A stretch of DNA of 57,926 nt from a virus: positions 77,541-135,466 of the IMG/VR virus record IMGVR_UViG_3300029305_004519; one strand, given 5' to 3'. Both the position numbers and the translations under genes were made by a program. Positions 546 to 57,926 of this stretch are shown in pieces. The notes beneath the pieces were generated by a model. It made no database searches. It was not told the DNA's origin and saw only the letters and a list, made by a program, of their open reading frames with translations. Numbering within the stretch: the stretch's first letter is position 1; every line of letters starts with the position of its first letter.

Positions 546-761
546 ATAGAATTTATTATAGCTTGGATGAGCTTCAATTTTTTCTGCAAGTTTATCTTGC
601 TTAATCATAGCTCTCTGCATGATTTTCTCTTGAATACTTACTGAAAAGCGAGATACCCAACAACCAAAATCGCTGATTTTTTCAAAAACTCGCGCTGACA
701 ACGGGTTCTCTAAATGGTCGTATTTTTTTTCCAATCTTTTAAATGCCTTATCTTTGTTCAT
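534..761 (-). CDS. Hypothetical small protein (75 aa)
   Basis: Part of ORF 534..776. The internal Met MNKDK is preceded by a G-rich Shine-Dalgarno. Its ATG overlaps the TGA of the upstream gene (ATGA). Confidence 0.5.
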   Translation of the reverse strand: MNKDKAFKRLEKKYDHLENPLSARVFEKISDFGCWVSRFSVSIQEKIMQRAMIKQDKLAEKIEAHPSYNKFYGVE

Positions 762-877
762 ACCAAATCCCCCCAAAATGTAATATCATCGTAATCATTT
801 AAAGTAGGCTCATCACTGCACAATTGCCCAACGATAATTAGAGCAAAGAGTATAGAGAAAAAGATTACTGCTTTCAT
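758..877 (-). CDS. Hypothetical 39-aa peptide with a hydrophobic N-terminus (MKAVIFFSILFALIIVGQLC...), signal-peptide-like
   Basis: Its start and stop are both ATGA-overlapped with the flanking genes. It is below the ORF-track size cutoff. Confidence 0.3.
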   Translation of the reverse strand: MKAVIFFSILFALIIVGQLCSDEPTLNDYDDITFWGDLV

Positions 878-1041
878 ATCTCCACCTCTTTAATAATTAT
901 CATTTTTCGTACTTGGAAATATAATTTCCAACCCAGCAATTGTCGCAAATGTCTGCGCACTCTTTTTTCATTCCAAGTGCAGAACGCTCCTTTCATGAAG
1001 CCGTTGTCTATGGAATATTCAAACTGTTTAATCTGTTTCAT
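874..1041 (-). CDS. Hypothetical small protein (55 aa)
   Basis: Part of ORF 874..1056. Start MKQIK is preceded by TGGGGGTTAAAG, a G-run. Confidence 0.45.
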   Translation of the reverse strand: MKQIKQFEYSIDNGFMKGAFCTWNEKRVRRHLRQLLGWKLYFQVRKMIIIKEVEI

Positions 1042-1049
1042 ATCTTTAA

Positions 1050-1080
1050 CCCCCAATTATCATTTGAAATAAGTTCCACA
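1050..1080. repeat. Copy A of a 31-bp direct repeat (minus sense TGTGGAACTTATTTCAAATGATAATTGGGGG)
   Basis: It duplicates 1494-1524 except for one base. Here it encodes only an 11-aa remnant ORF MWNLFQMIIGG, which is the C-terminus of the 1489-1743 protein. Confidence 0.6.
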
Positions 1081-1083
1081 TAG

Positions 1084-1179
1084 TCATTCCGATTCAATGA
1101 GCCACTTGACGGCTTCTTTGATAGAAGTTGCCGCGCCAATCGTGCCGTGGTTTTCTTCATTGATTTGAATGATTGTCAT
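1084..1179 (-). CDS. Hypothetical 31-aa ORF (MTIIQINEENHGTIGAATSIKEAVKWLIESE)
   Basis: Its ATG is ATGA-overlapped with the stop of the 1176-1484 gene. Short and speculative. Confidence 0.2.
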   Translation of the reverse strand: MTIIQINEENHGTIGAATSIKEAVKWLIESE

Positions 1180-1484
1180 TCTTCGGTCTCCTTTTCTTCT
1201 TTGTATTTTATTGTACCTTTTTCGATACAAGTTTGTATGTTTCGAGCCAAGAAATTTTCATTGAACACTCCCGTCATAAAAACCAATCCGCAAAAAATAT
1301 TATACAGAGGAATGGCGCATTGTAAAAATAGCTTAAACCATTGAAACAGGCGCTCACCGAAAGAACGACGAATAGCGGAAATAAGGTTGTGTCTTTTGGC
1401 ATAAAAGCGAACTTCAATAGTCATCAGAAGAACGCTTGCAAGGGCAAACAGAATTGTGCATACATAAATGTTTAAGATAATCAT
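1176..1484 (-). CDS. Small membrane protein (102 aa, multiple hydrophobic helices)
   Basis: Part of ORF 1176..1499. Start MIILNIYV follows a GGAGGA Shine-Dalgarno that lies within repeat copy B. Confidence 0.55.
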   Translation of the reverse strand: MIILNIYVCTILFALASVLLMTIEVRFYAKRHNLISAIRRSFGERLFQWFKLFLQCAIPLYNIFCGLVFMTGVFNENFLARNIQTCIEKGTIKYKEEKETEE

Positions 1485-1488
1485 TTTT

Positions 1489-1743
1489 TTATCCTCCAAT
1501 TATCATTTGAAATAAGTTCCACATGTTCATCACCCAAAGGGCGATATTAAGAACCACAAGATTGATTTTGTGCGCTTCCCAACAGAAAGTGGATGCGATG
1601 CTTGCGCCAATGCACCATAGAATCGTCATATTGGCGCCCATCATGCCGCCTATGACGCATATCGTGTAGATTAAGGCGGTGAGGTCGGTGGCGTCAAACT
1701 CATAGGGGCGGTCAAGGTTGAAATAGTTAGCGATTTTCTTCAT
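1489..1743 (-). CDS. Small membrane protein (84 aa)
   Basis: ORF track entry. Hydrophobic throughout. Overlaps the upstream gene by 17 nt. Confidence 0.55.
   Translation of the reverse strand: MKKIANYFNLDRPYEFDATDLTALIYTICVIGGMMGANMTILWCIGASIASTFCWEAHKINLVVLNIALWVMNMWNLFQMIIGG
1494..1524. repeat. Copy B of the 31-bp direct repeat
   Basis: It encodes the C-terminal 11 aa and stop of the 1489-1743 gene and contains the GGAGGA Shine-Dalgarno of the next gene. Confidence 0.6.
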
Positions 1744-1915
1744 ATTTTACTGCTCCATTCGGATAAGTTACAATGCGGTTTTGTTCTTTGAGTATGCGTT
1801 CTATCCTACAACCGCAACCGCATTCCCAAACCTCTGTTGAATGAGAGGTGGTAAAATGGTCAATCCATAACAATTTGGCTTGTGCGGTGCTACCGCAATT
1901 TGGACATTTAATCAT
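1727..1915 (-). CDS. Zinc-ribbon protein (62 aa; CPNCG...CGCGC)
   Basis: ORF track entry. AAGAGG Shine-Dalgarno. ATGA overlap with the upstream gene. Confidence 0.55.
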   Translation of the reverse strand: MIKCPNCGSTAQAKLLWIDHFTTSHSTEVWECGCGCRIERILKEQNRIVTYPNGAVKYEENR

Positions 1916-2073
1916 TTTACTTTTACCTCTTTGAGTTTATAAACTTGTACTTTTTCCCAATAGCGTTGATAATAATGAACGCAATTTTTCATTGTCTCTT
2001 TGGGGCAATCAATAACAATATTGCGACTGACAGAGCCGTCGATATTGCTGACGATTAAAAGCCATTTAATCAT
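1912..2073 (-). CDS. Hypothetical 53-aa protein (MIKWLLIVSNIDGS...)
   Basis: GGAGGA Shine-Dalgarno. ATGA overlaps at both ends. Below the ORF-track cutoff. Confidence 0.4.
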   Translation of the reverse strand: MIKWLLIVSNIDGSVSRNIVIDCPKETMKNCVHYYQRYWEKVQVYKLKEVKVK

Positions 2074-2327
2074 TTTCTTTTATCCTCCCTATATCCAAAA
2101 TATCTGCGACCTTGGTAGTATTCGATATTGATATGCCCCATTCGTGCAAGATTGCGAAGTGCATTTTCCATGGCACTAATAGTGACATATCCCTCTCCAT
2201 CTTCATCGTGAGGAACGCGAGCATAGATTTCCTCTTTATGAAGATAGTATTCCTTGTTTTCTGCGAGAATGTTCTCTACCCAATAAAACGCATCTCTCGG
2301 TCTTTCAAGATATTCTTTTCTAATCAT
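2070..2327 (-). CDS. Hypothetical protein (85 aa; MIRKEYLERPRD...)
   Basis: Part of ORF 2070..2378, using the internal Met with a GAGAGG Shine-Dalgarno. The longer ORF would overlap the tRNA-like element. Confidence 0.5.
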   Translation of the reverse strand: MIRKEYLERPRDAFYWVENILAENKEYYLHKEEIYARVPHDEDGEGYVTISAMENALRNLARMGHINIEYYQGRRYFGYREDKRK

Positions 2328-2350
2328 GGTTATTACCTCTCTTTTTTTAG

Positions 2351-2418
2351 TGGGCGTGAGGGGAATCGAACCCCTCATTTAACTTTCACTCATAGCAGAG
2401 TGTTTTTCCTGCTCGCCC
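2351..2418 (-). tRNA. tRNA-like element, possibly a tRNA gene; the cloverleaf could not be completed by eye
   Basis: The minus-strand RNA has a canonical T-arm AGGGG-UUCGAUU-CCCCU and a 7-bp acceptor stem GGGCGAG/CACGCCC with one mismatch, plus discriminator A. It is 68 nt long. A CUA triplet is present centrally, but no canonical anticodon stem could be found. It lies immediately downstream of a consensus promoter as the first element of an operon. Confidence 0.45.
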
Positions 2419-2431
2419 TTACTGCTCTTAT

Positions 2432-2460
2432 ATTATACCACATTATGTAGGTTTTGTCAA
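2432..2460 (-). promoter_or_regulatory. Consensus sigma-70-type promoter (TTGACA-17-TATAAT) driving the tRNA-like element and downstream small genes
   Basis: Plus tgtcaa at 2455-2460 and attata at 2432-2437 with an exact 17-bp spacer. Confidence 0.75.
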
Positions 2461-2607
2461 GAGGTTTTCAAAAAATATTTGCAACTATTTTTCGACAAGT
2501 GGCTTCCGTCGTCCCCTACTCGTTGTTTCTGTTCTCAACTCGCGCGTGTAGTTTCTGTTCCAAACTTTCGTCTGTGCCGTTCACACTTGGTTCCTCTTAA
2601 CATTATT
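2461..2607 (-). ncRNA. Candidate small noncoding transcript between tandem promoters
   Basis: About 145 nt lie between two consensus promoters with no ORF or Shine-Dalgarno. It contains an internal direct repeat GAACAGAAAC that occurs twice. Confidence 0.2.
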
Positions 2608-2636
2608 ATTATACCATACAATCGGGAAAATGTCAA
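2608..2636 (-). promoter_or_regulatory. Consensus sigma-70-type promoter (upstream member of a tandem pair)
   Basis: Plus tgtcaa at 2631-2636 and attata at 2608-2613 with a 17-bp spacer. The TTGCACAAA upstream element is at about 2647-2655. Confidence 0.7.
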
Positions 2637-2697
2637 GTGGTAATTTTGCACAAACTTTCAGCGGAAAAATGGCGAGAAGTGTACAGAATGCACAAAT

Positions 2698-2774
2698 CGG
2701 AACGCGGCGGCCGGCCTCGTTCCGCCGGAGTTTTGGGTAAAAAAGAAAAACCCCAGAACTTACGAAAAGCTCTG
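2698..2774 (-). terminator. Tandem hairpins terminating the 2840-3142 transcript
   Basis: Hairpin CCAGAGC-loop-GTTCTGG at about 2752-2774 is followed on the minus strand by UUUUUCUUUUUU. A GC-rich hairpin GGAACG-loop-CGTTCC sits at 2699-2724. Confidence 0.5.
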
Positions 2775-2839
2775 GAAATTTGCTGAGAGGTCTAAGTCGC
2801 GGAAAATCGGACTAGGCGCGAACGCTTTCGTCCGTCAGC

Positions 2840-3142
2840 TTAATGGCTGAAGTGTTTCAACACGTCTTGCGCATCGTACTCATTTTCGTTCTCACTCATA
2901 ATTATAATTTTATTTTCCCATTCAGCAGGAATGCTTAAAATTTTAAGTGTTTCCTTTAAGAATGAAATCATATCCGAACAATCATTTTTTTGATTGTCAG
3001 AAAGAAAGAGAAGGGCGCCCAACTCTTCACAGTAAAGCGCGTGAAGGGGATAGTCTTGCGCCGAGAGGGTTTCCCAATCAAGGGGAGTGAGTGAAGATTC
3101 AAAATGAGTGATTACAAGAGCGTGGCTGAAGTGGTACTTCAT
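2840..3142 (-). CDS. Hypothetical protein (100 aa)
   Basis: ORF track entry. GGAGG Shine-Dalgarno. Its own promoter lies upstream. Confidence 0.55.
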   Translation of the reverse strand: MKYHFSHALVITHFESSLTPLDWETLSAQDYPLHALYCEELGALLFLSDNQKNDCSDMISFLKETLKILSIPAEWENKIIIMSENENEYDAQDVLKHFSH

Positions 3143-5220: not shown

Positions 5221-5559
5221 TTATACCCCCAAACTGATTGCTATTGCTTTATCAACTTCCCACATTTGTTTACTATTTGCGATGCCGACAAAGGTTTTTA
5301 GTCTGCGCTTGTCAAGGGTTCGCATTTGCTCACATTCGACCATGCTCTCCTTGCATAAACCGCAAGAGGTATCGAGTAATACCTGTGTTGGCAGACGGAA
5401 TTTATGCGTGCGACTGGTGATGGCCGCCGCAATGACGATAGGCGCGCGTCTGTTGCCTATATCATTAGATACAATCAACACTGGGCGCAAACCGCCTTGC
5501 TCACTGCCGACTACTGGTGAAAGGTCTGCGTAATAAATTTGTCCTCTTTTGATTTCCAT
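5221..5559 (-). CDS. mazF: MazF/PemK/EndoA-family toxin endoribonuclease (112 aa)
   Basis: RGQIYYADLSPVVGSEQGGLRPVLIVSNDIGNRRAPIVIAAAITS...ECEQMRTLDKRRL closely parallels Bacillus EndoA/NdoA and E. coli MazF motifs. AAGGGGG Shine-Dalgarno. Confidence 0.85.
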   Translation of the reverse strand: MEIKRGQIYYADLSPVVGSEQGGLRPVLIVSNDIGNRRAPIVIAAAITSRTHKFRLPTQVLLDTSCGLCKESMVECEQMRTLDKRRLKTFVGIANSKQMWEVDKAIAISLGV

Positions 5560-7045: not shown

Positions 7046-7081
7046 AAAAGCGCGCCGCCCCGGGTGTCAGCGGCGCGGCGA
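7046..7081 (-). terminator. GC-rich terminator hairpin after the 7100-7384 gene
   Basis: GCGCGCCGC-loop-GCGGCGCGG is followed by CUUUUUGCAUUUU on the minus strand. Confidence 0.5.
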
Positions 7082-7099
7082 TGGAAAGAGGACTGCTTG

Positions 7100-7384
7100 T
7101 TAGCAGTCCCCTGTGTAGCAACCCATGTAAGGGTCAAAGCCAGTTTCATCGACGTCAGGCTCATAGTCCTCATCTTCCTCGTCCCAATCCTCATTGTAGT
7201 AGAGGCTTTCGGTGCCGTGGTGGTAGATGATTTGCGCCATAGGGGTAGCCTCGTCTTTGGTGAGGTGGTCATCTGCGACAAGGTCAACCAACCGCGCGAT
7301 TGCAATGGTATGGGGGTCTTCAAGCCCGAACTCCGAGCAGGCGAGGTTGTGGCAGTTGATGAGCGAAAGTTTGGTGTAATCCAT
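7100..7384 (-). CDS. Hypothetical protein (94 aa) with an acidic C-terminus; paralog of the 8116-8316 protein
   Basis: ORF track entry. AAAGGAGAA Shine-Dalgarno. Shares the motif ACxxxGLEDxHTIAIA with the 8116-8316 product. Confidence 0.55.
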   Translation of the reverse strand: MDYTKLSLINCHNLACSEFGLEDPHTIAIARLVDLVADDHLTKDEATPMAQIIYHHGTESLYYNEDWDEEDEDYEPDVDETGFDPYMGCYTGDC

Positions 7385-7387
7385 GGT

Positions 7388-7645
7388 AGTTCTCCTTTAT
7401 GTAGATTGAATTGGCTCTGCTCCGTCCATCCGAGGCGGTCGGCTCCTATGAGCGGACTGTGCCATCCTCGGCATCTTTGCCCTACTTGGTTTATATAGCG
7501 ATGGGCGTCTAACACGGTCTTTGCTGACCTCTGACTGCGCTCTGCGGAGAGCGGGCTCTTTACACCGCTTGCAAGGGTACTCGTTTCTTCAAGTTGTGGC
7601 TAAACTCGGTTGGTAGCGCTCCCAACGGCTTTCCCCTTGACACCT
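7388..7645 (-). ncRNA. Long (~250 nt) GC-rich untranslated leader or candidate structured RNA between the promoter and the 7100-7384 gene
   Basis: No ribosome-binding-site-preceded ORF. Several internal complementary segments such as CCGAGG/CCTCGG. The track ORFs here (6958..7515, 7064..7498) lack Shine-Dalgarno sites and look like compositional artefacts. Confidence 0.25.
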
Positions 7646-7647
7646 AT

Positions 7648-7676
7648 ATTATATCACACTTTCGGGCAAAAGTCAA
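7648..7676 (-). promoter_or_regulatory. Sigma-70-type promoter (TTGACT-17-TATAAT)
   Basis: Plus agtcaa at 7671-7676 and attata at 7648-7653. Confidence 0.7.
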
Positions 7677-7736
7677 TAGGTAATATTGCACAAACTTTTG
7701 GCGCCAAATTTGTGCATCTTGCACAAGAAGGCAAAA

Positions 7737-7800
7737 TCGTCGCGCCACGACCGCTGGCGCGACGGCGAAGGGAAAGAGGGCTTTTCAGCCCTCTCTTTGT
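7737..7800 (-). terminator. Tandem terminator hairpins after the 7785-8081 gene
   Basis: AGAGGGC-loop-GCCCTCT at about 7776-7797 and GTCGCGCCA-loop-TGGCGCGAC at about 7741-7767 are followed by GAUUUUGCC. Confidence 0.55.
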
Positions 7801-8081
7801 TTCAATGCGCGATAAGCATCGCGCTCTTCTTTGGTATCAAACCATGTCTTTTCGCCGTACATCCAAATCATATCAACGGAGTCGACACAGTGCACAAGAG
7901 CGAAGCCTTTATGCGCTTGTTGATGTGTGGCTCTAATGGCATATGGGCTACCATTCAAGCGTGCGGTTGAAACGCTCTCTCTGGTAGTTGCAATTTGATA
8001 TTCTTCAATAAAAGCAGGCGTTGCAAGAAAGGGACGTTTTACGCCAAGGACTTTGTAAAGCTCTCTAATAGAATGTTTCAT
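7785..8081 (-). CDS. Hypothetical protein (98 aa)
   Basis: ORF track entry. AGGAGGA Shine-Dalgarno. Confidence 0.55.
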   Translation of the reverse strand: MKHSIRELYKVLGVKRPFLATPAFIEEYQIATTRESVSTARLNGSPYAIRATHQQAHKGFALVHCVDSVDMIWMYGEKTWFDTKEERDAYRALKQREG

Positions 8082-8115
8082 GATATATCCTCCTGTTCGA
8101 TGGGGTAGAGGACTA

Positions 8116-8316
8116 TTAGTCCTCTACCATATGGTATGCGCCGATTGCTTGCATATAGATCGCACGACAGACCATTGCCGCATCCCAACATTTGGCGCCG
8201 CCGGCTTCATGCATTTCTACAATTCCGGCTATTGCAATGGTGTGCTTATCCTCAAGCCCAAGGTCAGTGCAGGCTTTATCCAGCCACTGCCGAGGAGTCA
8301 TGAAATAGTTGCTCAT
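8116..8316 (-). CDS. Hypothetical protein (66 aa); paralog of the 7100-7384 protein
   Basis: ORF track entry. GGAGGTG Shine-Dalgarno. Carries the GLEDKHTIAIA motif. Confidence 0.55.
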   Translation of the reverse strand: MSNYFMTPRQWLDKACTDLGLEDKHTIAIAGIVEMHEAGGAKCWDAAMVCRAIYMQAIGAYHMVED

Positions 8317-8328
8317 ATGCCCACCTCC

Positions 8329-8520
8329 TTATGCGCCGAGGGCTCTAAAACGGAGCCCTTCATATGTGCCGTGATAAAAGCGCCACTTGCCTGCGCCGTA
8401 GCCATAACGAACATTCCAACGCGTATTGCGTGTAACGTGACGGCGGAGCGCATTGCCCGTCATAGAGCCAAGGACTTCGCCTGTCTCAAGATTATAAGCC
8501 CAGTGTTTGCAGTTAGTCAT
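8329..8520 (-). CDS. Basic small protein (63 aa)
   Basis: ORF track entry. GGAGGT Shine-Dalgarno. Confidence 0.5.
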   Translation of the reverse strand: MTNCKHWAYNLETGEVLGSMTGNALRRHVTRNTRWNVRYGYGAGKWRFYHGTYEGLRFRALGA

Positions 8521-8577
8521 AATAGACCTCCAAGTATGTATTCAGAGGGGGAGCGTCCTCCGCCCTTCTGTGTCTAT

Positions 8578-13042: not shown

Positions 13043-14788
13043 ATGGCACTACAAGATTTACTAGACCTTTCTCTTGATCGAAATTAGTAGAAAATTGGAT
13101 TATCCGAAGAACGCGTGAAGGCGCAGATTCCTATCGTGCGCCAGTATGTTGCCTATTGGCGCGAGTACCCTGATATGTTCGTAGAGTTTCTATGTGGACC
13201 TAATCCTGAAAATTTTTCGCTTTTCTTTTATTAGCGCTTGTTTTTACGTGCAGTAATGCGCCATAGATATGCCTATGCAACATTTCCTCGTGCCTATTCA
13301 AAGAGCTTTTTATCTGTCCTAGTATTAATGCTAAGATGTATTCTTTACCCAGGCAGTCATTTATTCGTAACCACAGGCGGAAAAGAACAGGCGGCGGGTA
13401 TTGCTAAAGAAAAATCAGACGAGCTTTGTAAGCTTATACCTGGCTTACGCAATGAGCTCGATATGACAAGAGGAAAAACTAAAACTAGTAAAGATAATAT
13501 TGAATTGATCTTTAAAAATGGTTCAAAATTAGACATTATGGCGGCGCGCCAGTCTTCTCGTGGTAAGCGTGCAACCGGTGGATTGATGGAAGAATGTATA
13601 TTAATTGATCAAACGCTGCTGAATGAAGTGATAATTCCTACAATGAATGTAGACCGAAGATTATCAGACGGCTCCCGAGTAGAAGAAGAAACTGTTAATA
13701 AATCGTAGATTTATGTTACTACTGCGGGGTGGAAGAATAGTTTTGCTTATGAAAAGCTTATAGAGCTTCTTATTCGTCAAATTATCTACCCTGATGAAGC
13801 TATTGTTATGGGTGGAACCTGGCGTATTCCTGTTATGGAAAAGTTGCTTAAAAAAAGTTTTATAGAAGAGCTTAAGCTTGATGGTACTTACAATGACGCG
13901 TCTTTTAGTCGAGAATATGAATCAGAATGGTCTGGAGATGCAGAAAATGCATTTTTCTCTGCGGAGAAATTTGACAAACATCGTTAGTTGCTATAGCCTG
14001 AATATGAGTATTCTGGACGCACGTCTAAAAATGGATATTACGTACTTGGCGTCGACGTAGGTAGATTAAAATGTACTACTGAAGTTTGTGTCTTTAAAGT
14101 CACCCCTTAGGCGCAGGGCGCCGCTCTAAAATCTTTAGTCAATATTTATACTTATGAAGCTGAAGATTTTGAAGCACAAGCCATTAAAATTAAGCGCTTG
14201 TTCTATAAATACAAAGCGCGGGTTATTGCCATTGACGCAAATGGTTTAGGAGTAGGTTTAATCGACTTTATGACGAAAGGACAAGAAGATCCAGAAACTG
14301 GAGAATATCTATCTCCTTTTGGCATAGAAGGCGGAACTTCTGATGAATTTAATGAGCAATATAAAAAGATAAAAGGGCCTGGAGTAGAAGAAAATGCTAT
14401 GTATTTAATTAAGGCTAACGCGCCAATCAATACAGAAGCTCATACTTATGTTCAAACGCAATTAGTTGGTGGAAAAATTAAATTATTAATTGATGAAACA
14501 TAGGCTAAAACAAAATTAATGACCACTAAAATGGGTCAAGAAATGGATGCATCTAAACGAGCAGAATATTTGAAACCTTTTACTTTAACTACCATTTTAC
14601 GAGAATAGCTATTAAATTTGGTAGAAGATAACGAAGGAGTAAATATTATTTTAAAACAATCCTCTCGTAGCATTCCTAAAGATAAATTTTCTGCTTTTGA
14701 GTATGGACTATATTATATTAAACAAGAAGAAGATCGTAGTAGAAAACGTAAAAAGAGAAATATATCTGAGATGATGTTTTTCTCTTAA
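13043..14788 (+). CDS. terL: Terminase large subunit (581 codons; two consecutive TAG near the N-terminus and at least 7 TAG in total)
   Basis: Motifs YVTTAGWKNSFAYEK and ARVIAIDANGLGVGLIDF (RNaseH-like nuclease domain). Frame 2 is continuous to TAA 14786-14788. Confidence 0.8.
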
Positions 14789-37017: not shown

Positions 37018-40000
37018 ATGTCAAATAAGACTCCACAAAATGCTCAAGCTATGGTGCGAGATTGGCTAACTGCCATGCAGATCATTGCAGATGGATCAAC
37101 AAGTCCTGGAGATACTACTGTTATTGCGACAGTTATAGCCACTCCCTCAGAGGGATCGAATGAATACACGATAGATTTGGGCGGTGATAATAATACGCGC
37201 ACAGCTCTTGGTCAGAGAGGATTGTATGCAAAAGATAGTCGAGTATATGCCACATGTCCAGCAGACTAGAGTCTTAAAGCGGTGATTTTATGCTCTGCTA
37301 CTAGCACAAGCGGCGCCAGCGAGGTAATTTTACCAATAGATAGATATGCTATAATTTATGAATTAGAAACTATGAATAATAGGCCAGAGGATGATTATAA
37401 GCCGCAACAATGGGCAGGTAGCTCAACACCAGCCACACATTTAAAAATTTCTGCAACTTTAAATCCTACTGATGCGAGTCTAGATTATTATGTACCTTTT
37501 ACGATTAACTTTACAGATAACACCGAACTTGAATTGGTAGATGCTGTAGGCAGTGGCGCTGTAGAAGGATATCCTTTTGTAGCAGGGCCTCATGATATAG
37601 AAGTTTATGTTGATATTAAAGATAAAACTATTAGTAATATTATTCAAGGTAGGACATCTAATACAAGCATCGATAATGTTAAATATACTACTCTATATGA
37701 TCGAACTTTGTTATCACAGAATAAATTAATTATTTATTCTTATGAAGATTCTAGTAAACAATTATATGCAGTTCCTATTCATAAAAATAAAAATGATGAT
37801 AATTTAACTTATAATTATTCATGGCAAAAAGAATAGAAGACATATGAAGATCTTGGTACAAGTAACCCTATAGAGGCGGGCGCGCTAGTTCATGCAAAAG
37901 TTGGCTTTAAATGCACTGCGACCTGCACCAGTGAAGGCCATGAAGATGAATAGTTAACTGGTGAAATTGTTTTAGATGGAACTGCATATACTGTATCAGT
38001 GGCTGTAACAAGAGATAGTGGAGAGAATATAGATAATTATAATTTATCAGCATCTATTAATCCACCTCTTCCAGAAACAGTTTCTCCAATTTATCAATGG
38101 TATAAAGATGATATAGAATTTGAGGATGAAGGTAATCTTCCAAATAGAGTAATTAATGGCGTTACAGAGATTAGCGGAAGCGCTCATTATATTTGCATTA
38201 TCGAAGATAATAATGGAGAGTATTATGGAGAAGATGGTGTAACCTTATAGCAGATTATTTGGAGTGTTTAGAGCTCTACTGTTTATTATACAACGACTTC
38301 AAGTAATTCGAAACCAGATCTTCCTTTAGATTCTTCAGACTGGAGTACCAATGTTCCAAATGATTACGGAGAAGAGAACCCCTATTTATGGTCTTATTAG
38401 GAAACGATTTATACAGACGGTAATAGAACTAAAACGATCCGAACTGAGGTTTCTTTATAGTCTTTCTTTGTATCTTCTTCTTATAAAATGGAATTAACTA
38501 ATCCTTTTGATATGATTCCTGTTGATGCAGATAGTGTTTTGGCATCTTCTTCTGCGTTAAATGAAGCTTGGACTGAGATTAAGATTTATAGAGGCTCAGA
38601 GTTGCTTAATCCAGAGTCCATTAATATCGTTGATACGTTGTTGCCATCCTATGAGAGTGAAGAGACTTTAAATGGGTTGTATTTAGAGGATAAAACTTAT
38701 AATGAATTTACAGGAACTTATTCATTTGGTCTTAGCGCAGATAATAAAATTATTTTTAAAGTCAACTCATGGTCTTGGGAAGATAATTATACAGAAGAAA
38801 AAGATAGTGTATCATTTAATTTCTTTTATTATGAAAATGATGATGAATTAGCAACTGGCACTTTTACAATAAAAACCAATATTGCGACTGTTGATTATTC
38901 GTTGATGCTTTCATAGCGCATTGTTAATATTTCAAATTTACCATCAGAAGATAATCAATTTATCACTGTTAATTCAAAGAAAATTTGGGGTAATCGCTCT
39001 TAGATAAATGGCAATGGAGCTCGAATCCGATACAATTGGAATAAAGGTTTTGATAGCGACGACTATGCAGAGATTTCCGATATGAGTGACGCCCGACGAA
39101 TTAGCTATGCGGATAAAGTTACTGATGTATCTAATAAATTATATATTTGGCTAGAAGCACAAACTGGTCCCGATGATGAAAAGGAAGAGCCTATTTGGCA
39201 AGTCTGGGATTAGGACATTGTCTCTTTTATTGAAGATGGCGAAAACTCTTATTCAATGAGTTTAAATAATGACAGTGATGTTATTGCGATCAGCGCAGCT
39301 AGCGGCAAGGTTCTTGGTTCATTACCTACTATTTCTGTATAGACTTTTTACGGAGAAACTGTCGTAGATACGGGAACTGTTACAATTGATCCGATCAATT
39401 GTACACTTGACGAAGAAGAAGAAGAAGAAGTAGACAGAAGAACCTGTACATTACAAAGCATCTCTGCAGGAGAAACCTCTGGTAGTGTTACATTTACTTG
39501 GGATCCAGGGGAAAGCGCTCCATCTCTTACAAAAACTTTCACTTTTAATGTAGTAACATCATCTGTAGATTATGATTTAGTAATTCCTCAAACTACATTT
39601 AATACCTCAAGCAGCGTACAAGTAGCAGTATAGGTTAAGCGTACAAGAGAGGGCCAAGCAACTGACATTATTGCGCCTAATGGCGATTCTGATGTTGTAG
39701 TGCAGTATTAGAAGCAGAATGCTACAGGGTGGGAGACTTTAACCAACAGTAATCTTACAATTACTGATACTTCTGCCCCTTATACTTTTAGAATTATTAA
39801 GAAGAAAGATAAGGCAACTGATCCTGATTTTGTATGGGATGAAGAAACTATTGAATTTGTACGAGATGGTATTGATAAACCAATAAATACATGGCTTCGT
39901 GAATTTCCTTGGAGCACATGGGAGTATCACATAATTAAGAATCCTACTAGCTCTTGGGACTATTATAAAAAAGGCGAACATGAAGAATCCTATGATAATT

Positions 40001-42285
40001 CTCATATTAGCATTGGAGATTCTGTATATATCACAGGCATTATTACAGATAGGGATGCGGCACCAGGTATTCCAATGTCTATTACAGCTTATGGTATTGT
40101 AATAGCTATTGATAATGAGGGTGACGACAAAACGATTACAATGCAAAATACAAGGTATATAACTAGTGGTGGTCAAGGAGATAAAGGCGCGGATGGAGCT
40201 GATGGTAAAGATGGGGCAGATGGAGCCGATGGCAAAGACGGCGATCCAGGAAAAACCATTGAAACAAAATATGCCTACTATCGTTCGAATAGCTCTACTG
40301 CGCCAACATCTAAGCCTTGGGCAAATGGATGGCAACAAACTCCTTTAGGAGTTACGTATGATAATCGCTATGAATACGTGTCTTAGGCTACGGTGACAGA
40401 TGGAGAAGAGGGAACATGGTCTACTCCAACATTATGGAGCAAATTTAGTGTGGATGGTACGTCTGTAACTATTGAGTCGGGATATCCTCAATATCTTGTA
40501 ACAGATAGCGCGGACACACCTGGCGATGATCAACTATGGCAATCTTCATGGAATGCGATTAAAGATTAGATTGGCCCAGGTAAATATGTATGGACTTGGA
40601 TAAAATATTCAGACGGCACATCAACAAAAACAGCTTCATATCAGGGAGATAAAGGAGACAAGGGAACTGCTGGAGATACTGTGATATCGGAAACTAAATG
40701 GGCTTATTTAGGTTCTGATACGATGATTTCAGATTTCACAAATTATCCAATTAATAATATTGCTAGTTCGACGCAAGATAATCCTTCTCTTGGTAGTTAT
40801 TGGAAATGGGAAAAACCTAGTCAAACATATGTTTATAAACGTAGCATTGTTAAAAAAACTACTAAAACTTCGACGCAAACAACTTTTACTTGGAATGAAA
40901 CTGAATGGAGTGCCCCAATATTACATTCATTTCGAGGAAATACTAATTCTAGTTACTTAAACAGTGTTAATATTTTTGATGCATTAACAGCGGGCGGCGA
41001 GAAGCAGGGCATTTATTATGCTAATGATAAGGGAGAAGCGGTTTCTGCTGCTGAATTTGATCCTTCTAACCATAAAATGTATTTAAATGCTACATATATT
41101 AAGGCTGGAGAGATAACCTCAGATTTTATTAATACTAAGGATCTGTAGGCTGAAAAAATTTTAGTAACAGATGGTAATAATAATATTCTTTTATCAGCAG
41201 ATGGAAGAACAAATAAAGAAGGAGAATTAATAGCTGAAAATCCAGTTATTATAGGCGGTTTTAATGTTGGTGAAAAATATTTACGCTCAAACTCGGCTGT
41301 GACAATGGAGAATCCTCAAGCTGATAGTGTATATCTAGGCACAGATGGCATTAGTTTAGGCTCAAATTTTAGCGTAAATGCAGATGGTGCTATGACTGCT
41401 AAGAGCGGTACTATTGGTGGTTGGAATATTCAACCAGAAAAATTATCGGCTAATAATGTAACTTTATGGGCTAAAGGAACTCCATATGGCACGAATATGT
41501 CCCCTTTACGTTTTAGTGCAGGATTTAGATCCTCAAGTGCTTTACCATCATTTACTTCGGGAGACTATATAGAAGGGCAAGAACACTATAATGCTTTCGG
41601 TCCTTTTCTTAGTGGTGACTTACCCTATGATGTAATGAGAACTATTTATATTACAGATTCAAAGATTACTGGTAAATTTAATCCTGATACTCAATATCTT
41701 ACTCTTACTAACTTGCAAGCTTATTTAAGTTCTGATGATAGTGAACCATTAACATATGATTGGTCTGATATTGATATAATATCTTCTATTATTAATATTG
41801 TTAAAGTTGCAAAGAATTCATCTGGGGATCTAATAATTACTGCTCGTTTTTATGAAAATGCAGATATTATAGGTTTTGGAGAAGAGGATGGAAGAACAAT
41901 TACTTGCAAAGCTACTTTTCAAATCACAAATATGTTTCCTTTTGCTGTAACCGAGAATGGAGAAGCGTATTTGAATCAAGGCCATTTGGGAGGCCAAGGA
42001 TCTATAGGGGATTGGGAATATAAAGGAAGTATTTTATATTCAGATGATTATAATATGATAGGATAGTTAGAGAAAGGAACTGGTTTTCAAAGTCCTTGTA
42101 GCGGAGCGTATTCAATAGCAGTAGGATACACAACCCATGAAACCTGGGCAGGCGCGCCATTTAGAGTAAAGCACACTGGAGAAGTATATTGCGACAATGG
42201 ATTATACTTAAAAGGAGATAATGGAAGCACTTATAAGATTTCGGTAAATGCAAATGGCTCCTTGGTTGCAGCAATTCAATAGTAA
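37018..42285 (+). CDS. Giant tail fibre / receptor-binding protein (about 1,755 codons, about 20 TAG) with collagen-like Gly-X-Y repeats and a poly-Glu run
   Basis: Frame 1 is continuous from ATG 37018 through track ORFs 37282, 37999, 38488, 40075, 40681 and 41299. Collagen-like repeat GDKGADGADGKDGADGADGKDGDPGKT at about 40180-40260. Ends at TAG-TAA 42280-42285. Confidence 0.6.
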
Positions 42286-46913: not shown

Positions 46914-47150
46914 ATGGCTAATAATAAACAAATACAAGCGCGTATTTTAATGAAACACGATACTACTGCACATTGGGACGCGGCAGTAAATTTCATTCCA
47001 AAATTAGGAGAAATTATTATTTACAGTGATGATCCTCGTCAATTAAAAATTGGAGATGGAGTTACAACTGTAAGTAACTTGCTATTCATGACAGATGCAA
47101 TGGCTTTAACTAATGAAGATATTGACCAATTATTTGAAACTGAAACTTAA
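46914..47150 (+). CDS. Short protein (78 aa) consisting of only the fibre N-terminal module
   Basis: RILMKHDTTAHW...GEIIIY...KIGDGVTTVSNL. Confidence 0.5.
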   Translation: MANNKQIQARILMKHDTTAHWDAAVNFIPKLGEIIIYSDDPRQLKIGDGVTTVSNLLFMTDAMALTNEDIDQLFETET

Positions 47151-47161
47151 GGAGGATAGCT

Positions 47162-47782
47162 ATGGATTATAAAAACAAGCTGTGCTCCGGTGAAAATTTA
47201 GAGTATTTAATCTCTAAACTTAGAGTGTGGATTACAGAAATTACTCAAATTCAAGCAGACTGGGCGAAAACAGATGAGCTTGCAATGGATTATATAGAGA
47301 ATAAACCTTCTATTGATCCGGGTGATGGAGAACGATCATTAATTGCTGGTAATAATACTTCAGCAACTGGACAATATAGTATTGCTGTTGGACAAAATTG
47401 CGCTGCGAGCGGAATAGCTAGTGTTGCCGGCGGAGCAGGGTCGGCCGCCCTAGGAGACTTTTCTCATGCACTAGGCGTATCTGCATAGGCTGTTTCTAAG
47501 GGTAGTACAGCAATAGGTTATCTTACTTCAGCAGGTTGTCGTGGATATTATATGACTGCAATTGATACTGCTCATTCTATGATCTATATTGATACCGTAT
47601 AGAATAATAACCCTCATCTAGGCACTGATTTTAATAGCGATGGAACTACGCCAGATACTGCTTATTGGAATACATCTTTTGATGCCCCTCAATGGACTCT
47701 TGAGTCTACGGATGCTGCAGGAGAAATTGGAGATACCACTCTAAGTGAAGCGAATTTAAAAAAATTGCTTGCTTTATTATAA
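47162..47782 (+). CDS. Hypothetical fibre-associated protein (206 codons, 2 TAG)
   Basis: AAGGAGG Shine-Dalgarno. Confidence 0.45.
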
Positions 47783-47800
47783 AAGGAGGCTTTATTATAA

Positions 47801-50329
47801 ATGAAATTTGATAATAAACATTTTGTTTCGGGAGAAAATTTGCAGCATTATAATGAGCAAATTCAAGACCGATTAAATGATAAGGTAGATATTAAAGACT
47901 ATCCCTCAATAAAACAAGGGGAAGGAGAAAATAGTATTATTGCAAATGATATTGCAATTAATCAAGCAATAGGAGATAACTCTATAGCGTTTGGTACGAA
48001 TACATTGGCAGGCGCCAAGGGCTATTACTATTAGGCAATTGATACTACAAATAAAAAAATTTATTTAAGTCATGAGTAGATTCTATATCCTGTAATCACC
48101 ACAGAAGATTTGACTGATACTACTTTTGATACCCCGGCCTATGAGGTCGGACGCAAGTTTTGCATTATAAATAATAGCAAGTCTAACATGATTGCTAGCA
48201 TTGTTAGCATAGAAAATAATGTTATAACTTATGATGTGCCTCTTTCAATCTTTGACAATGGAATTGTTGAGATTCAAGCAGATTATATCGAACCAGACGA
48301 TTATGCTTTATATGTTCCAGAACAAGCTAGTATAGGTGAGGTTACTGTTAAATTAAATGCAGTTGCTCTTGGAAATGGATCTATTGCGGCAGGTAATGAA
48401 GCTTATGCATCTGGTAGAGCTTCGTTAGCATATGGTGATTATGCATATGTTGAAGGCTATGGTTCACGAGCTGCATATGCGGCACATGCTGAAGGAGTTC
48501 GTACAATTGCAGAATCTCAATGTCACTCTGAAGGGTATGAGACTTAGGCGCTAAAAGCATTCTCTCATGCAGAAGGTTATGGTAGCGTTGCAGGCATGAA
48601 TCGCGCCCATGCAGAAGGTAGTTTAACATATGCGCTTGGAATTGCTGCTCACGCAGAGGGCTAGACTACTGTTGCAGAAGGGCAAGGCTCCCACGCAGAA
48701 GGAACTGAAACTTATGCTAAAGGCAAACATGCGCACGCCGAAGGGTATTTAAGTCAGGCCCAAGCAGAAAGCTCACATGCTGAAGGATATTTAGCCATAG
48801 CTAGTGGTATTTAGGCCCATGCGGAAGGTAACTAGAGTGTTGCTAGCGGCTAGGGCGCCCATGCAGAAAACTATGGAAATACTGCAAGTGGTAAATATTC
48901 ACATGCTGAGGGAGTAAGAACTATTGCCTCAGGTCGAGCTGCACATGCAGAAGGAGAGAACTCTTAGGCTGTAGGAGAGAGATCTCATGCTGAGGGATAT
49001 CAAGCTACCGCCTATGGAAAAGGATCTCATGCTGAAGGACAATCTTTGAATAAAGCATTGACTGTTTTAGAAGGAGTAGAGTTAGACGCTTCTAAAATTA
49101 TTGAAAAATGGAATGAGAGTAAATTTAATTTAGCTTTAGGAGAGTATGCTCATACTGAAGGACTTAATACTTTAGCTTTAAACAAGGCTGCTCATGCAGA
49201 AGGATCTGATACCAATGCTGAAGGAGCTTACTCCCACGCTGAGGGAGTAGGATTTGCTTCTGAATCCTACACAGTAGGCTGGGGGGAGGAGGCTTATGAT
49301 GTTTCGATAGAATTTCAAGGAGCGGCTCGAGGTTTAGCCAGCCATGTCGAAGGAAACGCCACAGTGGCCTCTGGAGATTATTCTCATGCCGAGGGGGTCA
49401 GTTTCTTATTTGCAGAGGAAGGACTCCGTGGAGTACAACAAACAGAAGCTCGGGGGTATGGTGCCCATGCAGAGGGACAAGGAACTTTAGCCATTGGAGA
49501 TTATTCTCATGTTGAAGGAGGCCTTGGCGATGGAGACGATGAAGAATTTGATGGTTCTAAAAGAAGAACTAAGGCGGAAGGAATAAAGTCTCATGCTGAA
49601 GGTTCTGGTACCTGGGCGCTTGCAGATGCGGCTCATAGTGAAGGACATCATACAGCTGCGTCTGGAAAAGGTTCTCATGCTGAAGGTAGTGATACTTCTG
49701 CTAGCGGAGATTATTCTCATGCTGAAGGCTATAACACATAGGCTCTTGGTGAGGGCGCACACGCCGAGGGAAAAAGTTCTATTGCGAAGAATAATTATTC
49801 TCACGCAGAAGGCAACATGACAAGAGCAGAAGCTTCTTGTGGGCATGCAGAAGGTAATAACTGTAGAGTCGGCGCTTTTGATAGAGGTTCTGTAAGTGCA
49901 GGTGGTAATACTAGCGCAGGTGCGTATGGACATGCGGAAGGTAATGCGACTATTGCATCAGGAGTTGCTGCTCATGCTGAGGGTAAATTAACTTATGCAA
50001 GCGGAGAGGCTTCTCATGCGGAAGGTCTATCAACCATAGCCGAGGGAAAAGCATCTCATGCTGGAGGTGAATACTCAGAAGCTCGAAAGATTCATGCTTT
50101 TGCTCATGGTTTCCATGTTACAGCTGACGCCCCTCGGCAAGTAGTTGTAGGGTCATGGAATGTTCCAGATGAAGAAGCTTTGATGATAGTAGGAAATGGA
50201 CAAGATTTTGGCAGTAAAAACAATGCTTTTACGATATATCCTAATAGCATTAAAATTGGAAACGTTGAACTGACAGCTGAAAAGCTTCAAAAGTTAATTG
50301 ATTTTATTGACTCTGTTGAGTTGAATTGA
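47801..50329 (+). CDS. Repetitive beta-roll-like fibre/adhesin (842 codons, about 10 TAG) built from about 30 copies of a roughly 14-aa unit containing SHAEG
   Basis: Frame 2 is continuous through track ORFs 47801, 48110, 49046 and 49817. The repeat xAxGxxSHAEGxxT is reminiscent of YadA-head or Hep_Hag-type repeats. Confidence 0.6.
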
Positions 50330-50349: not shown

Positions 50350-51285
50350 ATGAGTATAAATAATATTAATTTTAAAACTAATATTTTTACACAAGATAAC
50401 AAAGAAGTAAGTGGCATCAAACAAGTTGATGGATATGATGTTTTTGAAATTAATGGAGCTAGTCAATGGCCTATTGCAGTTAAAGATCATACCGATGAAC
50501 CAGCATTAATGAATAGACCTTTATTGGCATTTAGTGGCAAAAATTTGTTTTCCTTTGAAGATATGTTTTATGAATCTTGGGCTCCATAGGAAGATAATCC
50601 AGATTTAACTCAATATGGCTACAGACTCACAGATAATGCTTTATGGTTTATCGTTGTAGAAGATGTCTCTTTTGGTTTAAGTGGGACTATGCCCGCCAAG
50701 GGATTGCGTGGACGCACTATGACTTTCCATTGTGAAATACCGAATGGAGGCTGGATAGTGGAAGATTGGGATGGATCCGCTTATATATCCATTACAGCAG
50801 AGTTAGAAAATGGTAGTTAGTAGGTTATAATGTATGCAAACCTATATACCACTGATTATGAGGGTTTAAGTAGTAGTTTCGAAGAAGTTGTAAATACAAC
50901 TTTTACGATTCCTAATGAGACGTGTTTATTAAGGTTTGAATTCGCGACACAACATCCCGACGCACTACATTATCATTGGTAGGGCGAAATTACAAATGTT
51001 TCCTTAGAATTATCTGAAGAATTTAGCGGTTTTGAGAAACCAATAGTTGCACGATTTTATTATAATGGTATAACTGATGGACATTGGTCTACATGGCGTG
51101 CTGGATAGCCTTATAATTTACTATGGATACCTCTTGGCCTTCCTTGTACTGTTAGCTACATGAATGCAGATAGCGTGTTTAGTGAACCATTAAATACTTA
51201 TTGTAAGCAACCTTTTGCAGATATAAAATCATTGCAGTCTAGAGTTTCAGATATTGAATTTTATCTTTTTTAGCTGTTTAATTGA
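50350..51285 (+). CDS. Tail protein (311 codons, about 6 TAG) whose 3' end carries the CUU-UUU-UAG putative +1 frameshift site
   Basis: AAAGGAG Shine-Dalgarno. Frame 1 runs to TGA 51283-51285. In the zero frame the product ends ...YLF(TAG)LFN. Confidence 0.5.
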
Positions 51286-52138
51286 AGGCACTAAAATTCA
51301 CATGGCAGACGGGACAGAGAAAAATATTGAGGATATCCAACAGGGAGATATGATTCAATCGTGGGATATTGAAAATAATTGCTTATATGCAGTTCCTGCA
51401 TTATGTAGCGTTAAAACAGGATATGCAAGAGAATATAAAGCATATCTATTTGAAAACGGATCTTATCTAACTATTTATGATCCGCATCATATCTATTCTT
51501 GTACGACTCAAGCGCCTAAACGCGCAAGTTCTTTTAAGATTAGTGAAACAACAATTGGTTGGCCTGGACAAGAAGTTATGTATGTAGGTGATATGAAGCA
51601 TAATTTAGCAAGGCCTAAAGCTCATTATACTTTACTGACTGCGAATAACTTATATTTTGCAGACGGGATTCTTTGTGGACATAATGCGGATAGTAAAAAT
51701 ACATTTGCAGAAATGGGAGTCTTTACTCCAACGGCAGAAGAAAAAGCCTTATATGAATTGGATGCTGAACCATATATGATTAGACGTGAAGAAAAGTTTA
51801 ATCCTGAATATTTAAAAGAAGTAGCTACAATTCGTGGCGAGGTTATTCGTATTAAAAAATAGATTGAAACTTTAAAGAAAAGACTTGGAAATACTGATTA
51901 TAAAGCACTTAAATTCTTTGAAGGGCTGTTGCCTCTTGATGAATGGTCTGGAGCAGCAGACGATAGAGCAGCATTGCGTGAAAAAATTAATGAGAGACAA
52001 GATAAGCTAGCATTAATGCAAGAAAAATATGATGCAATTAAAGCTAAGTATCTAACCAATAAAACCCCAGTAGATTGTTTTAAGGAGTGTTACATCCGCG
52101 ATATGGCGTATTTACGCGAACATCAAACGAAGGAGTGA
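51254..52138 (+). CDS. Hint (Hedgehog/intein-like, BIL-type) domain protein, likely made as a +1 frameshift extension of the 50350 product
   Basis: CLIEGTKIHMADGTEKNIEDIQQGDMIQSWD (Hint N-terminal block with catalytic Cys) ... NNLYFADGILCGHN (C-terminal HN block). There is no ATG or Shine-Dalgarno upstream of the Cys; the track start is a TTG. The first ATG, at 51302, lies downstream of the catalytic Cys. Confidence 0.55.
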
Positions 52139-57080: not shown

Positions 57081-57110
57081 TTCTAAATATATTTTAAAGG
57101 AGGACATAAT

Positions 57111-57926
57111 ATGTTCAACACATCAAATGGATATTCTTTATCCGACATTGCTGCCGTAACAGGTGGAAACAGAGGCAACGGTGGTTTTGGTGACGGCTTC
57201 GGAGAGAACGGCTGGTGGATCATTCTTCTGTTCCTGTTTACAGGCTGGGGAAGAAATGGTTGGGGCGGAAACGGCGGATCTGAAGGTGGATATGCTTTCA
57301 ATCCTTACTTCTATGGATTTGGCTCAGCACCTTGCGCTACCAAGGACGACGTTCGCGCCGCAGTAGATCAGCAAACCTTAATTTCTAAGCTTGACAACCA
57401 AACTTATGGCTTAGCTGATAGCACCTATGCATTAAGCAATGCAATCACAGGTGGATTCCATGGCGTAGATAATGCTATCTGCACTCTTGGATATCAAAAC
57501 CAAGCTGGCTTCACAGCTCTTGGCAACCAAATCGCAGCTTGTTGCTGCGACACTCGCGCAGAAATCGCTGACGTAAAGACACAGGGAGTTATTAATACTA
57601 ATACTCTTGCTTCTCAGTTGGCTGCATGCTGCTGTGACATTGAGAAGGCAAATATGGAAAACAGATTTGCTGCTCAAACCTATAACTGCAATACTCTTCA
57701 GGCTATTGACAAATTAGGTGATAGAATCATTGACTTCATGACGCAAGATAAGATTGCATCTCTTACTGCAGAGAATCAGTCTCTTAAATTCGCGGCATCA
57801 CAAGCAAATCAAAATGCATTTATCACTGCAAATCAAGAAGCTCAAACTGCAGAGTTAATTCGCAGACTATCAACTCCGTGCCCAGTGCCAGCATATGTGG
57901 TACCAAACCCTAATTGCTGCTACGAT
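57111..57926 (+). CDS. Gly-rich, membrane-anchored protein with repeated AACCCD motifs. The C-terminus runs off the window edge. No TAG, and GC-richer codons than its neighbours.
   Basis: AAAGGAGG Shine-Dalgarno. GNGGFGDGFGENGWWIILLFLFTGW is followed by two IAACCCD / LAACCCD repeats. Confidence 0.45.
   Translation, partial: MFNTSNGYSLSDIAAVTGGNRGNGGFGDGFGENGWWIILLFLFTGWGRNGWGGNGGSEGGYAFNPYFYGFGSAPCATKDDVRAAVDQQTLISKLDNQTYGLADSTYALSNAITGGFHGVDNAICTLGYQNQAGFTALGNQIAACCCDTRAEIADVKTQGVINTNTLASQLAACCCDIEKANMENRFAAQTYNCNTLQAIDKLGDRIIDFMTQDKIASLTAENQSLKFAASQANQNAFITANQEAQTAELIRRLSTPCPVPAYVVPNPNCCYD

Follow-up and report, generated by a model that had tools for sequence, protein, structure and literature searches.

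We analysed a stretch of 57,926 nucleotides of viral DNA (IMG/VR virus record IMGVR_UViG_3300029305_004519, positions 77,541 to 135,466), called the window in what follows, and in it the gene lying at 47801..50329, which an earlier reading made from the letters alone (the sequence-only reading) had described as an 842-codon fibre composed of tandem repeats. We conclude that this gene very probably encodes a tail fibre, either a side fibre or an adhesin, of a large siphovirus which decodes the codon TAG as glutamine. The window is the structural half of this siphovirus, and the fibre takes an ordinary place in a very large and already known family of phage fibres. The contributions made here are the recoding of TAG to glutamine, a domain map of the protein, and the arrangement of the fibre with a separately encoded anchor and a short paralog. 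The coordinates of all features are collected in Table 1.

Decoding of TAG as glutamine

Translated with the standard bacterial code (table 11), the region of the fibre is split into open reading frames (ORFs) of 77, 145, 231 and 170 amino acids. The frame of the fibre has nine internal stops, all of them TAG (nucleotides 48032, 48077, 48545, 48662, 48812, 48833, 48851, 48965 and 49739), while TAA and TGA are absent from its 842 codons; the remaining two frames have 52 and 101 stops. The repeats of the protein, described below, keep their 14-residue register across seven of the nine TAG codons, which rules out frameshifts or a row of separate genes. Hence the 842-codon frame of the sequence-only reading stands if TAG is a sense codon, but it is interrupted nine times under the standard code, and the need for another decoding had been overlooked. 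The gene is readable only with TAG translated as glutamine, and TAG then makes up 9 of its 29 glutamine codons.

The TAG codons of the fibre fall at variable positions of the repeat, and the amino acid was therefore assigned from the large terminase subunit, TerL, whose gene also holds nine in-frame TAG. We aligned it with homologs which use the standard code (Enterococcus phage VRE9_4, Geobacillus virus E3 and Alicyclobacillus phage KKP_3916). TAG stands at an invariant or nearly invariant glutamine in FFY[Q]RLFL and in NKS[Q]IYVT, and three more TAG positions are glutamine in the closest relative. The same argument from TerL was applied to the decoding of TAG in phAss-1 (PMC10607447), and decoding of TAG as glutamine has been validated by metaproteomics in gut phages (PMC9523058).

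The pattern extends over the whole late region. With table 11, ORFs of at least 100 amino acids account for 22 kb of the window; read-through of TAG raises this to 55 kb, and read-through of TGA instead to 32 kb. The 34 late genes of the plus strand, between 10.2 and 56.8 kb (10198-56820), contain 211 in-frame TAG; if TAG is glutamine, this is 32% of their glutamine codons, next to 387 CAA and 70 CAG. These genes end with TAA (25 genes) or TGA (nine genes) and never with TAG. The terminase, portal and tape measure genes show the same in-frame TAG pattern as the fibre. Eight late genes are free of TAG (those at 16896, 18323, 19928, 24803, 27556, 42403, 45155 and 46914), and among them may be the structural genes with the highest expression.

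The virus thus appears, from its coding sequences, to be a TAG-to-glutamine ("code 15") siphovirus related to phAss-1 (TerL 42% identical; NCBI placement "Caudoviricetes code 15 clade") and to Enterococcus phages of the EF1 type. Its TerL is 42-46% identical to those of phAss-1 and of siphoviruses of Bacillota (Enterococcus EF1, H1 and VRE9_4; Geobacillus E3). It shares with phAss-1 the concentration of TAG-to-glutamine recoding in virion genes, and it differs from it in its fibres: those of phAss-1 are of pectate-lyase type and not of YadA type, and a tblastn search of phAss-1 with the window fibre gave no match (PMC10607447 for the recoding and the fibre type). phAss-1 has three suppressor tRNAs, and none has so far been seen here. 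In the window and in about 12 kb of flanking sequence taken from other assemblies (7.3 kb past the right end on contig L015, 4.8 kb past the left end on L019) no suppressor tRNA was found: ARAGORN reported no tRNA in the window or in the flanking contigs L015, L019, L020 and L021, and Rfam gave no suppressor tRNA in the window. Some recoded phages lack a suppressor tRNA (PMC10607447). The relatives of TerL lie on gut-metagenome contigs of 106-159 kb, so that the genome is probably about twice as long as the window and over half of it probably lies outside; the exact pattern of the window end had no match in IMG/VR.

The comparison of TerL also showed that recoding is patchy within the clade. 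TAG is absent from the TerL of an INPHARED relative (L002, MT836163; 71% identical) and of three of 11 relatives among metagenome-assembled genomes (MAGs; L025, L027 and L030), and eight relatives have 3-10 TAG in TerL (L028, L029, L031, L034-L037 and L039). The closest relative overall is L039 (contig JAZKZW010000082.1), with a TerL 90% identical and five TAG. In gene calls the public sources differ: those of JGI on contigs identical to the window are the standard-code fragments (L006), and those of ENA and Logan translate TAG, so that their products of 371 and 969 amino acids have Q at TAG (L021 605-1720, L014 16-2925). Gene callers which use the standard code break the 842-residue fibre and most of the 47-kb late region into meaningless fragments.

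Repeats and domains of the protein

Frame 1 of the gene contains 30 motifs of the form H[AVS]E[GN]; a looser pattern finds 33. Of the 30 spacings between successive H-x-E-G motifs, 24 are of exactly 14 residues and one is of 13, and 13 consecutive spacings equal 14. The exact string HAEG occurs 25 times and SHAEG only 13 times; the sequence-only reading, which counted about 30 SHAEG repeats, was thus right about the number and spacing of the units but not about their literal form. The 32 units share the consensus x-A-x-G-x-x-[S/A]-H-A-E-G-x-x-T, with H in 32 of 32, E in 31 of 32 and the following G in 31 of 32. This periodicity is genuine and far exceeds what chance would give.

The repeats occupy the larger part of the protein. 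The early turns of the array are degenerate, the 32 regular units begin at residue 222, and the array is broken by five insertions of 7-27 residues. Before the array, the first 40 residues of the fibre match none of the 120 best homologs. After it, the last 83 residues of the protein are non-repeat: a cap found throughout the family is followed by a short segment with a helix of 13 residues (residues 179-191 of the model of the C-terminal part). In the sequence-only reading this C-terminus was a possible receptor-binding tip or trimerisation module. It does differ from the repeats, and cap and helix together are plausibly a trimer cap, but a separate receptor-binding domain is not found there. 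The minus-strand ORF inside the gene was rightly set aside as an artefact: it has no Pfam match, and its recurring FSMR mirrors TCT CAT GCT GAA (SHAE) in the reverse complement.

Origin of the 42-nucleotide periodicity

At the level of DNA, the unit TCTCATGCTGAAGG was found with at most two mismatches 17 times between 48482 and 50067, against 0.42 occurrences expected in the whole window. The autocorrelation of the DNA has a peak at lag 42 (0.444, against 0.300 +/- 0.021 at other multiples of 3), and a search for repeat families gave a spacing of 42 nucleotides, with copies 60-78% identical to each reference. Tandem Repeats Finder (TRF) detected no 42-nucleotide array in the gene and reported only a stretch of 21 nucleotides repeated 2.6 times at 69% match. 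The 33 units taken in register have a mean identity of 50.5% (51% between adjacent units, 71% at most), and the longest exact direct repeat is of 17-18 nucleotides. This means that the 42-bp unit which had been said to recur throughout 48.4-50.1 kb exists as a periodicity, but not as a uniform array, since five insertions interrupt it and its copies agree at about half of their positions.

The identity at lag 42 is 0.49 at first, 0.48 at second and only 0.36 at third codon positions. The synonymous sites are thus near random, and hence the periodicity is held by selection at the protein level. The repeats are old and kept by selection on the protein, and do not come from recent duplication of DNA. 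We also compared assemblies. The 170-residue fragment of the standard code has an exact match on nine contigs; the eight which were retrieved, from eight JGI samples, are 99.97-100% identical to the window with zero gaps. One of them (L006) spans the whole fibre gene and two (L007, L008) much of it; of the array, the remaining five contain the final part at most. The sequence-only reading had called the repeats prone to expansion and contraction and had proposed to compare their copy number among variants. Neither the divergence of the units nor the three contigs which overlap the array, in samples that are possibly related, bears this out: no insertion or deletion is seen in them. Strict periodicity of a protein does not imply unstable repeats in its DNA.

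Predicted fold

Pfam YadA_head (PF05658) matches the fibre at 45.3 bits, for a gathering cutoff of 25, in seven stretches. By sequence, the solved relatives are heads of trimeric autotransporters only: BpaC (7o23, E 8.5e-10), CbpF, and BoaA, the Hep_Hag-family head 3s6l. We predicted structures with AlphaFold2 (AF2). The model of residues 648-842 has a mean predicted local distance difference test (pLDDT) of 83.9, above 90 across the regular turns; it shows two strands per 14 residues, further strands through the cap and the helix at the end. Searched with Foldseek against the PDB, it has BoaA 3s6l as top match (E 5.5e-4), and the next matches (AtaA, CbpF, BpaC, YadA 1p9h, UspA1 and EibD) are all YadA-like heads. 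In the model of residues 94-248, the beta-roll runs from about residue 188 with pLDDT above 90, and the inserted domain is a small three-strand beta unit of moderate pLDDT, with no significant fold match in the PDB. Two other folds were considered and rejected: left-handed beta-helix acyltransferases gave non-significant Foldseek matches (E>0.1), and the RTX-type calcium-binding beta-roll with its GGxGxDxUx nonapeptide has a period of 9 and not 14, HemolysinCabind having no match.

According to these models, the repeats are predicted to fold as a parallel beta-roll of the YadA-head type. The likeness to trimeric autotransporter heads seen in the sequence-only reading is confirmed by the Pfam score, the PDB sequence matches and the predicted fold, and the structure prediction it had asked for gave, on monomer segments, a repetitive beta-roll whose only useful matches were YadA-like heads. 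In the database of predicted viral structures BFVD, matches reach E 3e-10 and are phage proteins, under the names "YadA-like protein", "Peptidase S74 domain-containing protein", "LbR_YadA-like" and "Baseplate protein". No phage member was met among the solved structures, in the sequence search or in the fold search.

The solved heads (YadA 1p9h, BoaA 3s6l, BpaC 7o23, AtaA 3wp8, CbpF 9gh4) have in common with the fibre the 14-residue repeat matching PF05658 and the small-residue core S-x-A-x-G, and they are the best structural matches to the predicted roll. They differ in that the fibre has no signal peptide, stalk or membrane anchor and is encoded in a phage tail module. Its array, with five insertions, counts about 32 turns, as against roughly 8 in YadA. 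A further difference concerns the two variable positions of the autotransporter core S-x-A-x-G, which in the alignment are occupied in the fibre by the nearly invariant His (32/32) and Glu (31/32). These residues would therefore line up along the rod.

Family and homologs

A word-indexed protein search was saturated, 7,670 of its 8,000 scored candidates having E<=1e-5; the best homologs are 33-45% identical. An exhaustive HMMER search with residues 648-842 gave 19,148 clusters at 50% identity for E<=1e-3, 10,414 for E<=1e-10 and 1,869 for E<=1e-30. The consensus order of the family is a variable N-terminus, an inserted domain (GxYxxxIDxxNxxIYL...ITY), an array of SHAEGxxTxAxGxx, a cap, and a variable C-terminal module, often an intramolecular chaperone of the Peptidase_G2 or Peptidase_S74 type and occasionally a YadA_stalk. 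The window fibre has no Peptidase_G2, S74 or YadA_stalk module and ends 20 residues past the cap. Its helical ending is also the very C-terminus of four homologs (P0021, P0007, P0051 and P0107). The 120 best homologs have 17-59 H-x-E-G motifs per protein, with a median of 35.

Compared with the phage tail fibres named "YadA-like" or "Peptidase S74", such as those of uncultured Caudoviricetes in BFVD (A0A8S5PYN4, A0A6J5M016), the window fibre has the same repeat, cap motif and inserted N-terminal domain. It differs by an identity of 41-45% at best, by the lack of a Peptidase_G2/S74 chaperone, by the separate encoding of its anchor and by its nine TAG sense codons. In cultured phages, homologs are annotated as a tail spike in Flavobacterium phage vB_FspM_immuto and as a tail fibre in Verrucomicrobia phage P8625; a paper of 2014 pointed out a YadA domain in the tail fibre of a pelagiphage (PMC3909814). 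The role of phage fibre proposed in the sequence-only reading agrees with the position of the gene in the tail module and with its homologs, some having fibre chaperone domains and others the name of tail fibre or tail spike. For the fibre, no close relative was found in IMG/VR or in the metagenome contig collection, and its DNA has no match in INPHARED. A recoded related contig (L014, 16-6884) bears two tandem fibre genes with YadA heads, of 969 and 1313 amino acids and with two in-frame TAG each; the first has the same C-terminal helix as the window fibre.

Anchor, paralog and other genes of the window

The products of the genes at 44004, 45155 and 46914 have an Mtd_N-like N-terminal domain, which is typical of tail fibres. 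The fibre polypeptide itself has no N-terminal domain for attachment to the virion; its anchor is a separate ORF of 78 residues, two genes upstream. This ORF is 35-60% identical to the first 60 residues or so of 12 of the 120 YadA-head homologs, in which the anchor is fused. Between anchor and fibre stands a 206-residue paralog which begins with the same N-terminal peptide, M-x-[FY]-x-NK-x-x-x-SGENL in both proteins, and continues with a few turns of YadA type and the beginning of the insert, and its terminal helix resembles that of the fibre (SEANLKKLLALL); YadA_head matches it at 23.8 bits, just under the cutoff. The three genes at 46914, 47162 and 47801 each have their own AGGAGG and ATG. 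We considered a -1 frameshift joining the 78- and 206-residue ORFs and rejected it, as the downstream frame has a stop at 47141, a slippery site is absent, and both ORFs have start signals (AGGAGG and ATG) of their own.

Since the fibre lacks an anchor, a separate anchor ORF exists and the peptides at both ends are shared, the fibre and its paralog would seem to dock non-covalently on the separately encoded anchor.

The tape measure of 2896 residues implies a tail of about 0.4 micrometres, tail length being about 0.15 nm per tape-measure residue. The ORF at 51254, two genes downstream of the fibre, has a TTG start which overlaps the 3' end of the 311-residue gene. Among the small minus-strand genes of the early region is a toxin gene of the MazF/PemK type, and several independent assemblies from JGI and ENA join this region directly to the late genes. 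A GC-rich island at 7050-8550 (GC 0.52-0.58, against about 0.35 elsewhere) carries ORFs which overlap on the two strands, and Rfam gives no match there. The ORF which runs off the right end of the window is a product of 286 residues on L015, where dUTPase and NrdD genes lie further on, on the opposite strand.

Table 1. Positions in the window of the fibre gene, its parts and other features.
Feature	Position	Strand	Basis and remarks
MazF/PemK-type toxin gene	5221-5559	-	PF02452, 107.7 bits
Sigma-factor-like gene	10646		
TerL	13043..14788	+	
Portal	15364		
Tape measure, 2896 residues	28183-36873	+	PhageMin_Tail, 95.8 bits; 62 in-frame TAG
1755-residue protein	37018-42285	+	no Pfam match; short collagen-like run (GGQGDKGADGADGKDGADGADGKDGDPGK)
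Fibre cluster	42.4-52 kb		
Stand-alone anchor domain (Mtd_N-like), 78 residues	46914..47150	+	weak Mtd_N and tail-fibre PHROG matches
206-residue paralog ("mini-fibre")	47162..47782	+	two in-frame TAG; collinear with fibre residues 1-116, E 8e-10
Shine-Dalgarno AGGAGG of the fibre gene	47784..47789	+	11 nt upstream of ATG 47801; seen in the sequence
Fibre gene, 842 residues with TAG as Gln	47801..50329	+	stop TGA at 50327-50329; translation, stop census, Pfam YadA_head
N-terminal peptide, residues 1-35 (MKFDNKHFVSGENL...)	47801..47905	+	paralogous to the start of the 206-residue protein upstream
First degenerate YadA-type turns, residues 36-73	47906..48019	+	alignment with homologs and upstream paralog
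Family-conserved inserted domain, residues 74-175 (GYYxxAIDxxNKKIYL...NVITY)	48020..48325	+	family consensus
Span of the nine in-frame TAG (Gln)	48032..49741	+	stop census of the frame
Beta-roll array, residues 176-759	48326..50077	+	repeat motifs, AF2 pLDDT >90, regular strand pattern
Array insertion, 27 residues, 417-443	49049..49129	+	
Four further array insertions	49256-49321, 49406-49444, 49529-49549, 49865-49909	+	
Antisense ORF, 148 residues	49487..49933	-	wholly within the fibre gene; artefact, not a gene
Family-wide cap, residues 760-822 (...VVVGSWNVPDEEALMIVGNGQDFGSKNNAFTIYPNSIKIGNV)	50078..50266	+	consensus QHVxGxYNxxD...IVGNGTxxxxRSNAxT
C-terminal segment, residues 823-842	50267..50326	+	helix predicted at residues 826-838 (AEKLQKLIDFIDS)
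ORF two genes downstream of the fibre	51254-52138	+	Hint/intein-like block at start (SCLIEGTKIHMADGTEKNIEDIQQGD); weak NCBIfam intein match, E 0.007
Tail protein	54120		
ORF running off the right end	57110-57926	+	Gly-rich N-terminus, repeated AACCCD motif

Discussion

We propose the following picture of the fibre. With nine TAG codons, it would be produced only under active suppression of TAG. By analogy with trimeric autotransporter heads, three chains would pack side by side into a rigid rod, which at about 0.5 nm per turn and 32 or more turns would measure some 15-20 nm. This rod would be tied indirectly to the tail tip, and its surface, together with the five insertion loops, would adhere to a ligand of the host envelope. 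The host probably belongs to the Bacillota, because relatives of TerL infect Bacillota, because the AGGAGG sites are strong, and because of the MAG bins of the relatives, which are mostly Bacilli, Erysipelotrichaceae or Clostridia, several of them being clearly mis-assigned.

A further step, which we put forward tentatively and hold to be less probable than its contrary, is a split modular attachment, in which the 78-residue anchor would dock both rods. One site of the baseplate could then display, interchangeably, a long rod of 842 and a short rod of 206 residues. The ladders of nearly invariant His and Glu might cause the assembly of the rod, or its binding, to depend on pH or metal ions.

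Other explanations must be weighed against a recoded tail fibre. That the gene is a decayed pseudogene, inactivated by nonsense mutations and expressed as short fragments, would account for the four ORFs of table 11 and for the JGI calls on identical contigs, but it is scarcely credible: the nine stops are without exception TAG, neither the frame nor the register of the repeats is broken, the terminase, portal and tape measure share the pattern, TAG falls on conserved glutamines in the terminase, and the sequence is identical across samples. We find it highly improbable, too, that the protein is a trimeric autotransporter adhesin of bacterial type, encoded by a moron, which would be exposed on the host cell and form no part of the virion. 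The solved relatives, which are autotransporter heads without exception, and weak partial NCBIfam matches to BimA, Ata and EmaA point that way, but these matches score 15-29 bits for cutoffs of 600-3000. Neither YadA_anchor (PF03895) nor YadA_stalk matches even at E<=1, the protein ends 83 residues past the last repeat with a terminal helix of only 13 residues, the N-terminus MKFDNKHFVSGENLQHYNEQIQDRL has no hydrophobic core like that of a signal peptide, the likely host is of Gram-positive type, and the gene lies within the tail module.

As for the repeats, they could form a contingency-type locus, in which the 42-bp units change number by slippage or unequal recombination and so change the host range rapidly. 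The 42-nucleotide periodicity is indeed real and the best homologs vary widely in their number of motifs, but the low identity of the units, the shortness of the exact repeats, the absence of a TRF array, the loss of identity at third positions and the gapless contigs over all or much of the array make such a locus very unlikely. An accessory fibre of the virion deserves more consideration, although we think it rather unlikely: the rod would serve reversible adhesion of low affinity to polysaccharide, capsule or mucus, and another product of the cluster would set the host range, the candidates being the proteins of 373, 544 and 1755 residues and the 311-residue protein downstream. The cluster has at least five fibre-like genes, the protein has no distal globular domain beyond its final cap and helix, and a short paralog adjoins it. 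Against this, the YadA-like head is itself the ligand-binding part of trimeric autotransporters, as in the complex of CbpF with CEACAM1 (9gh5).

The reading of the gene as a recoded tail fibre must also be set beside several points which weaken it. The primary receptor-binding protein could be the product of another fibre-like gene. The AF2 models cover the two stop-free segments only, as monomers, and their TM-scores against solved heads are modest (0.42/0.51 for BoaA). The agent which decodes TAG was not seen in the window or its flanks. Lastly, the eight JGI samples may be related, which makes the test of repeat stability a weak one.

Finally we must note what these results mean for the virus and for the family. 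Recoding has been proposed to gate the translation of late genes (bioRxiv 10.1101/2021.08.26.457843), and a fibre which would need suppression of TAG fits this idea. With over 19,000 clusters at 50% identity, the fibres of the YadA-head type make up one of the largest fibre families of phages. To our knowledge no receptor has been identified for any of them, and a well-delimited fibre whose domains have clear limits offers a reasonable starting point for structural or binding work. The variation in repeat number within the family has accrued over long evolutionary distances. As the repeats are old and kept by selection on the protein, changes of host range in this family are more likely to come about by exchange of modules and by point substitution than by slippage.

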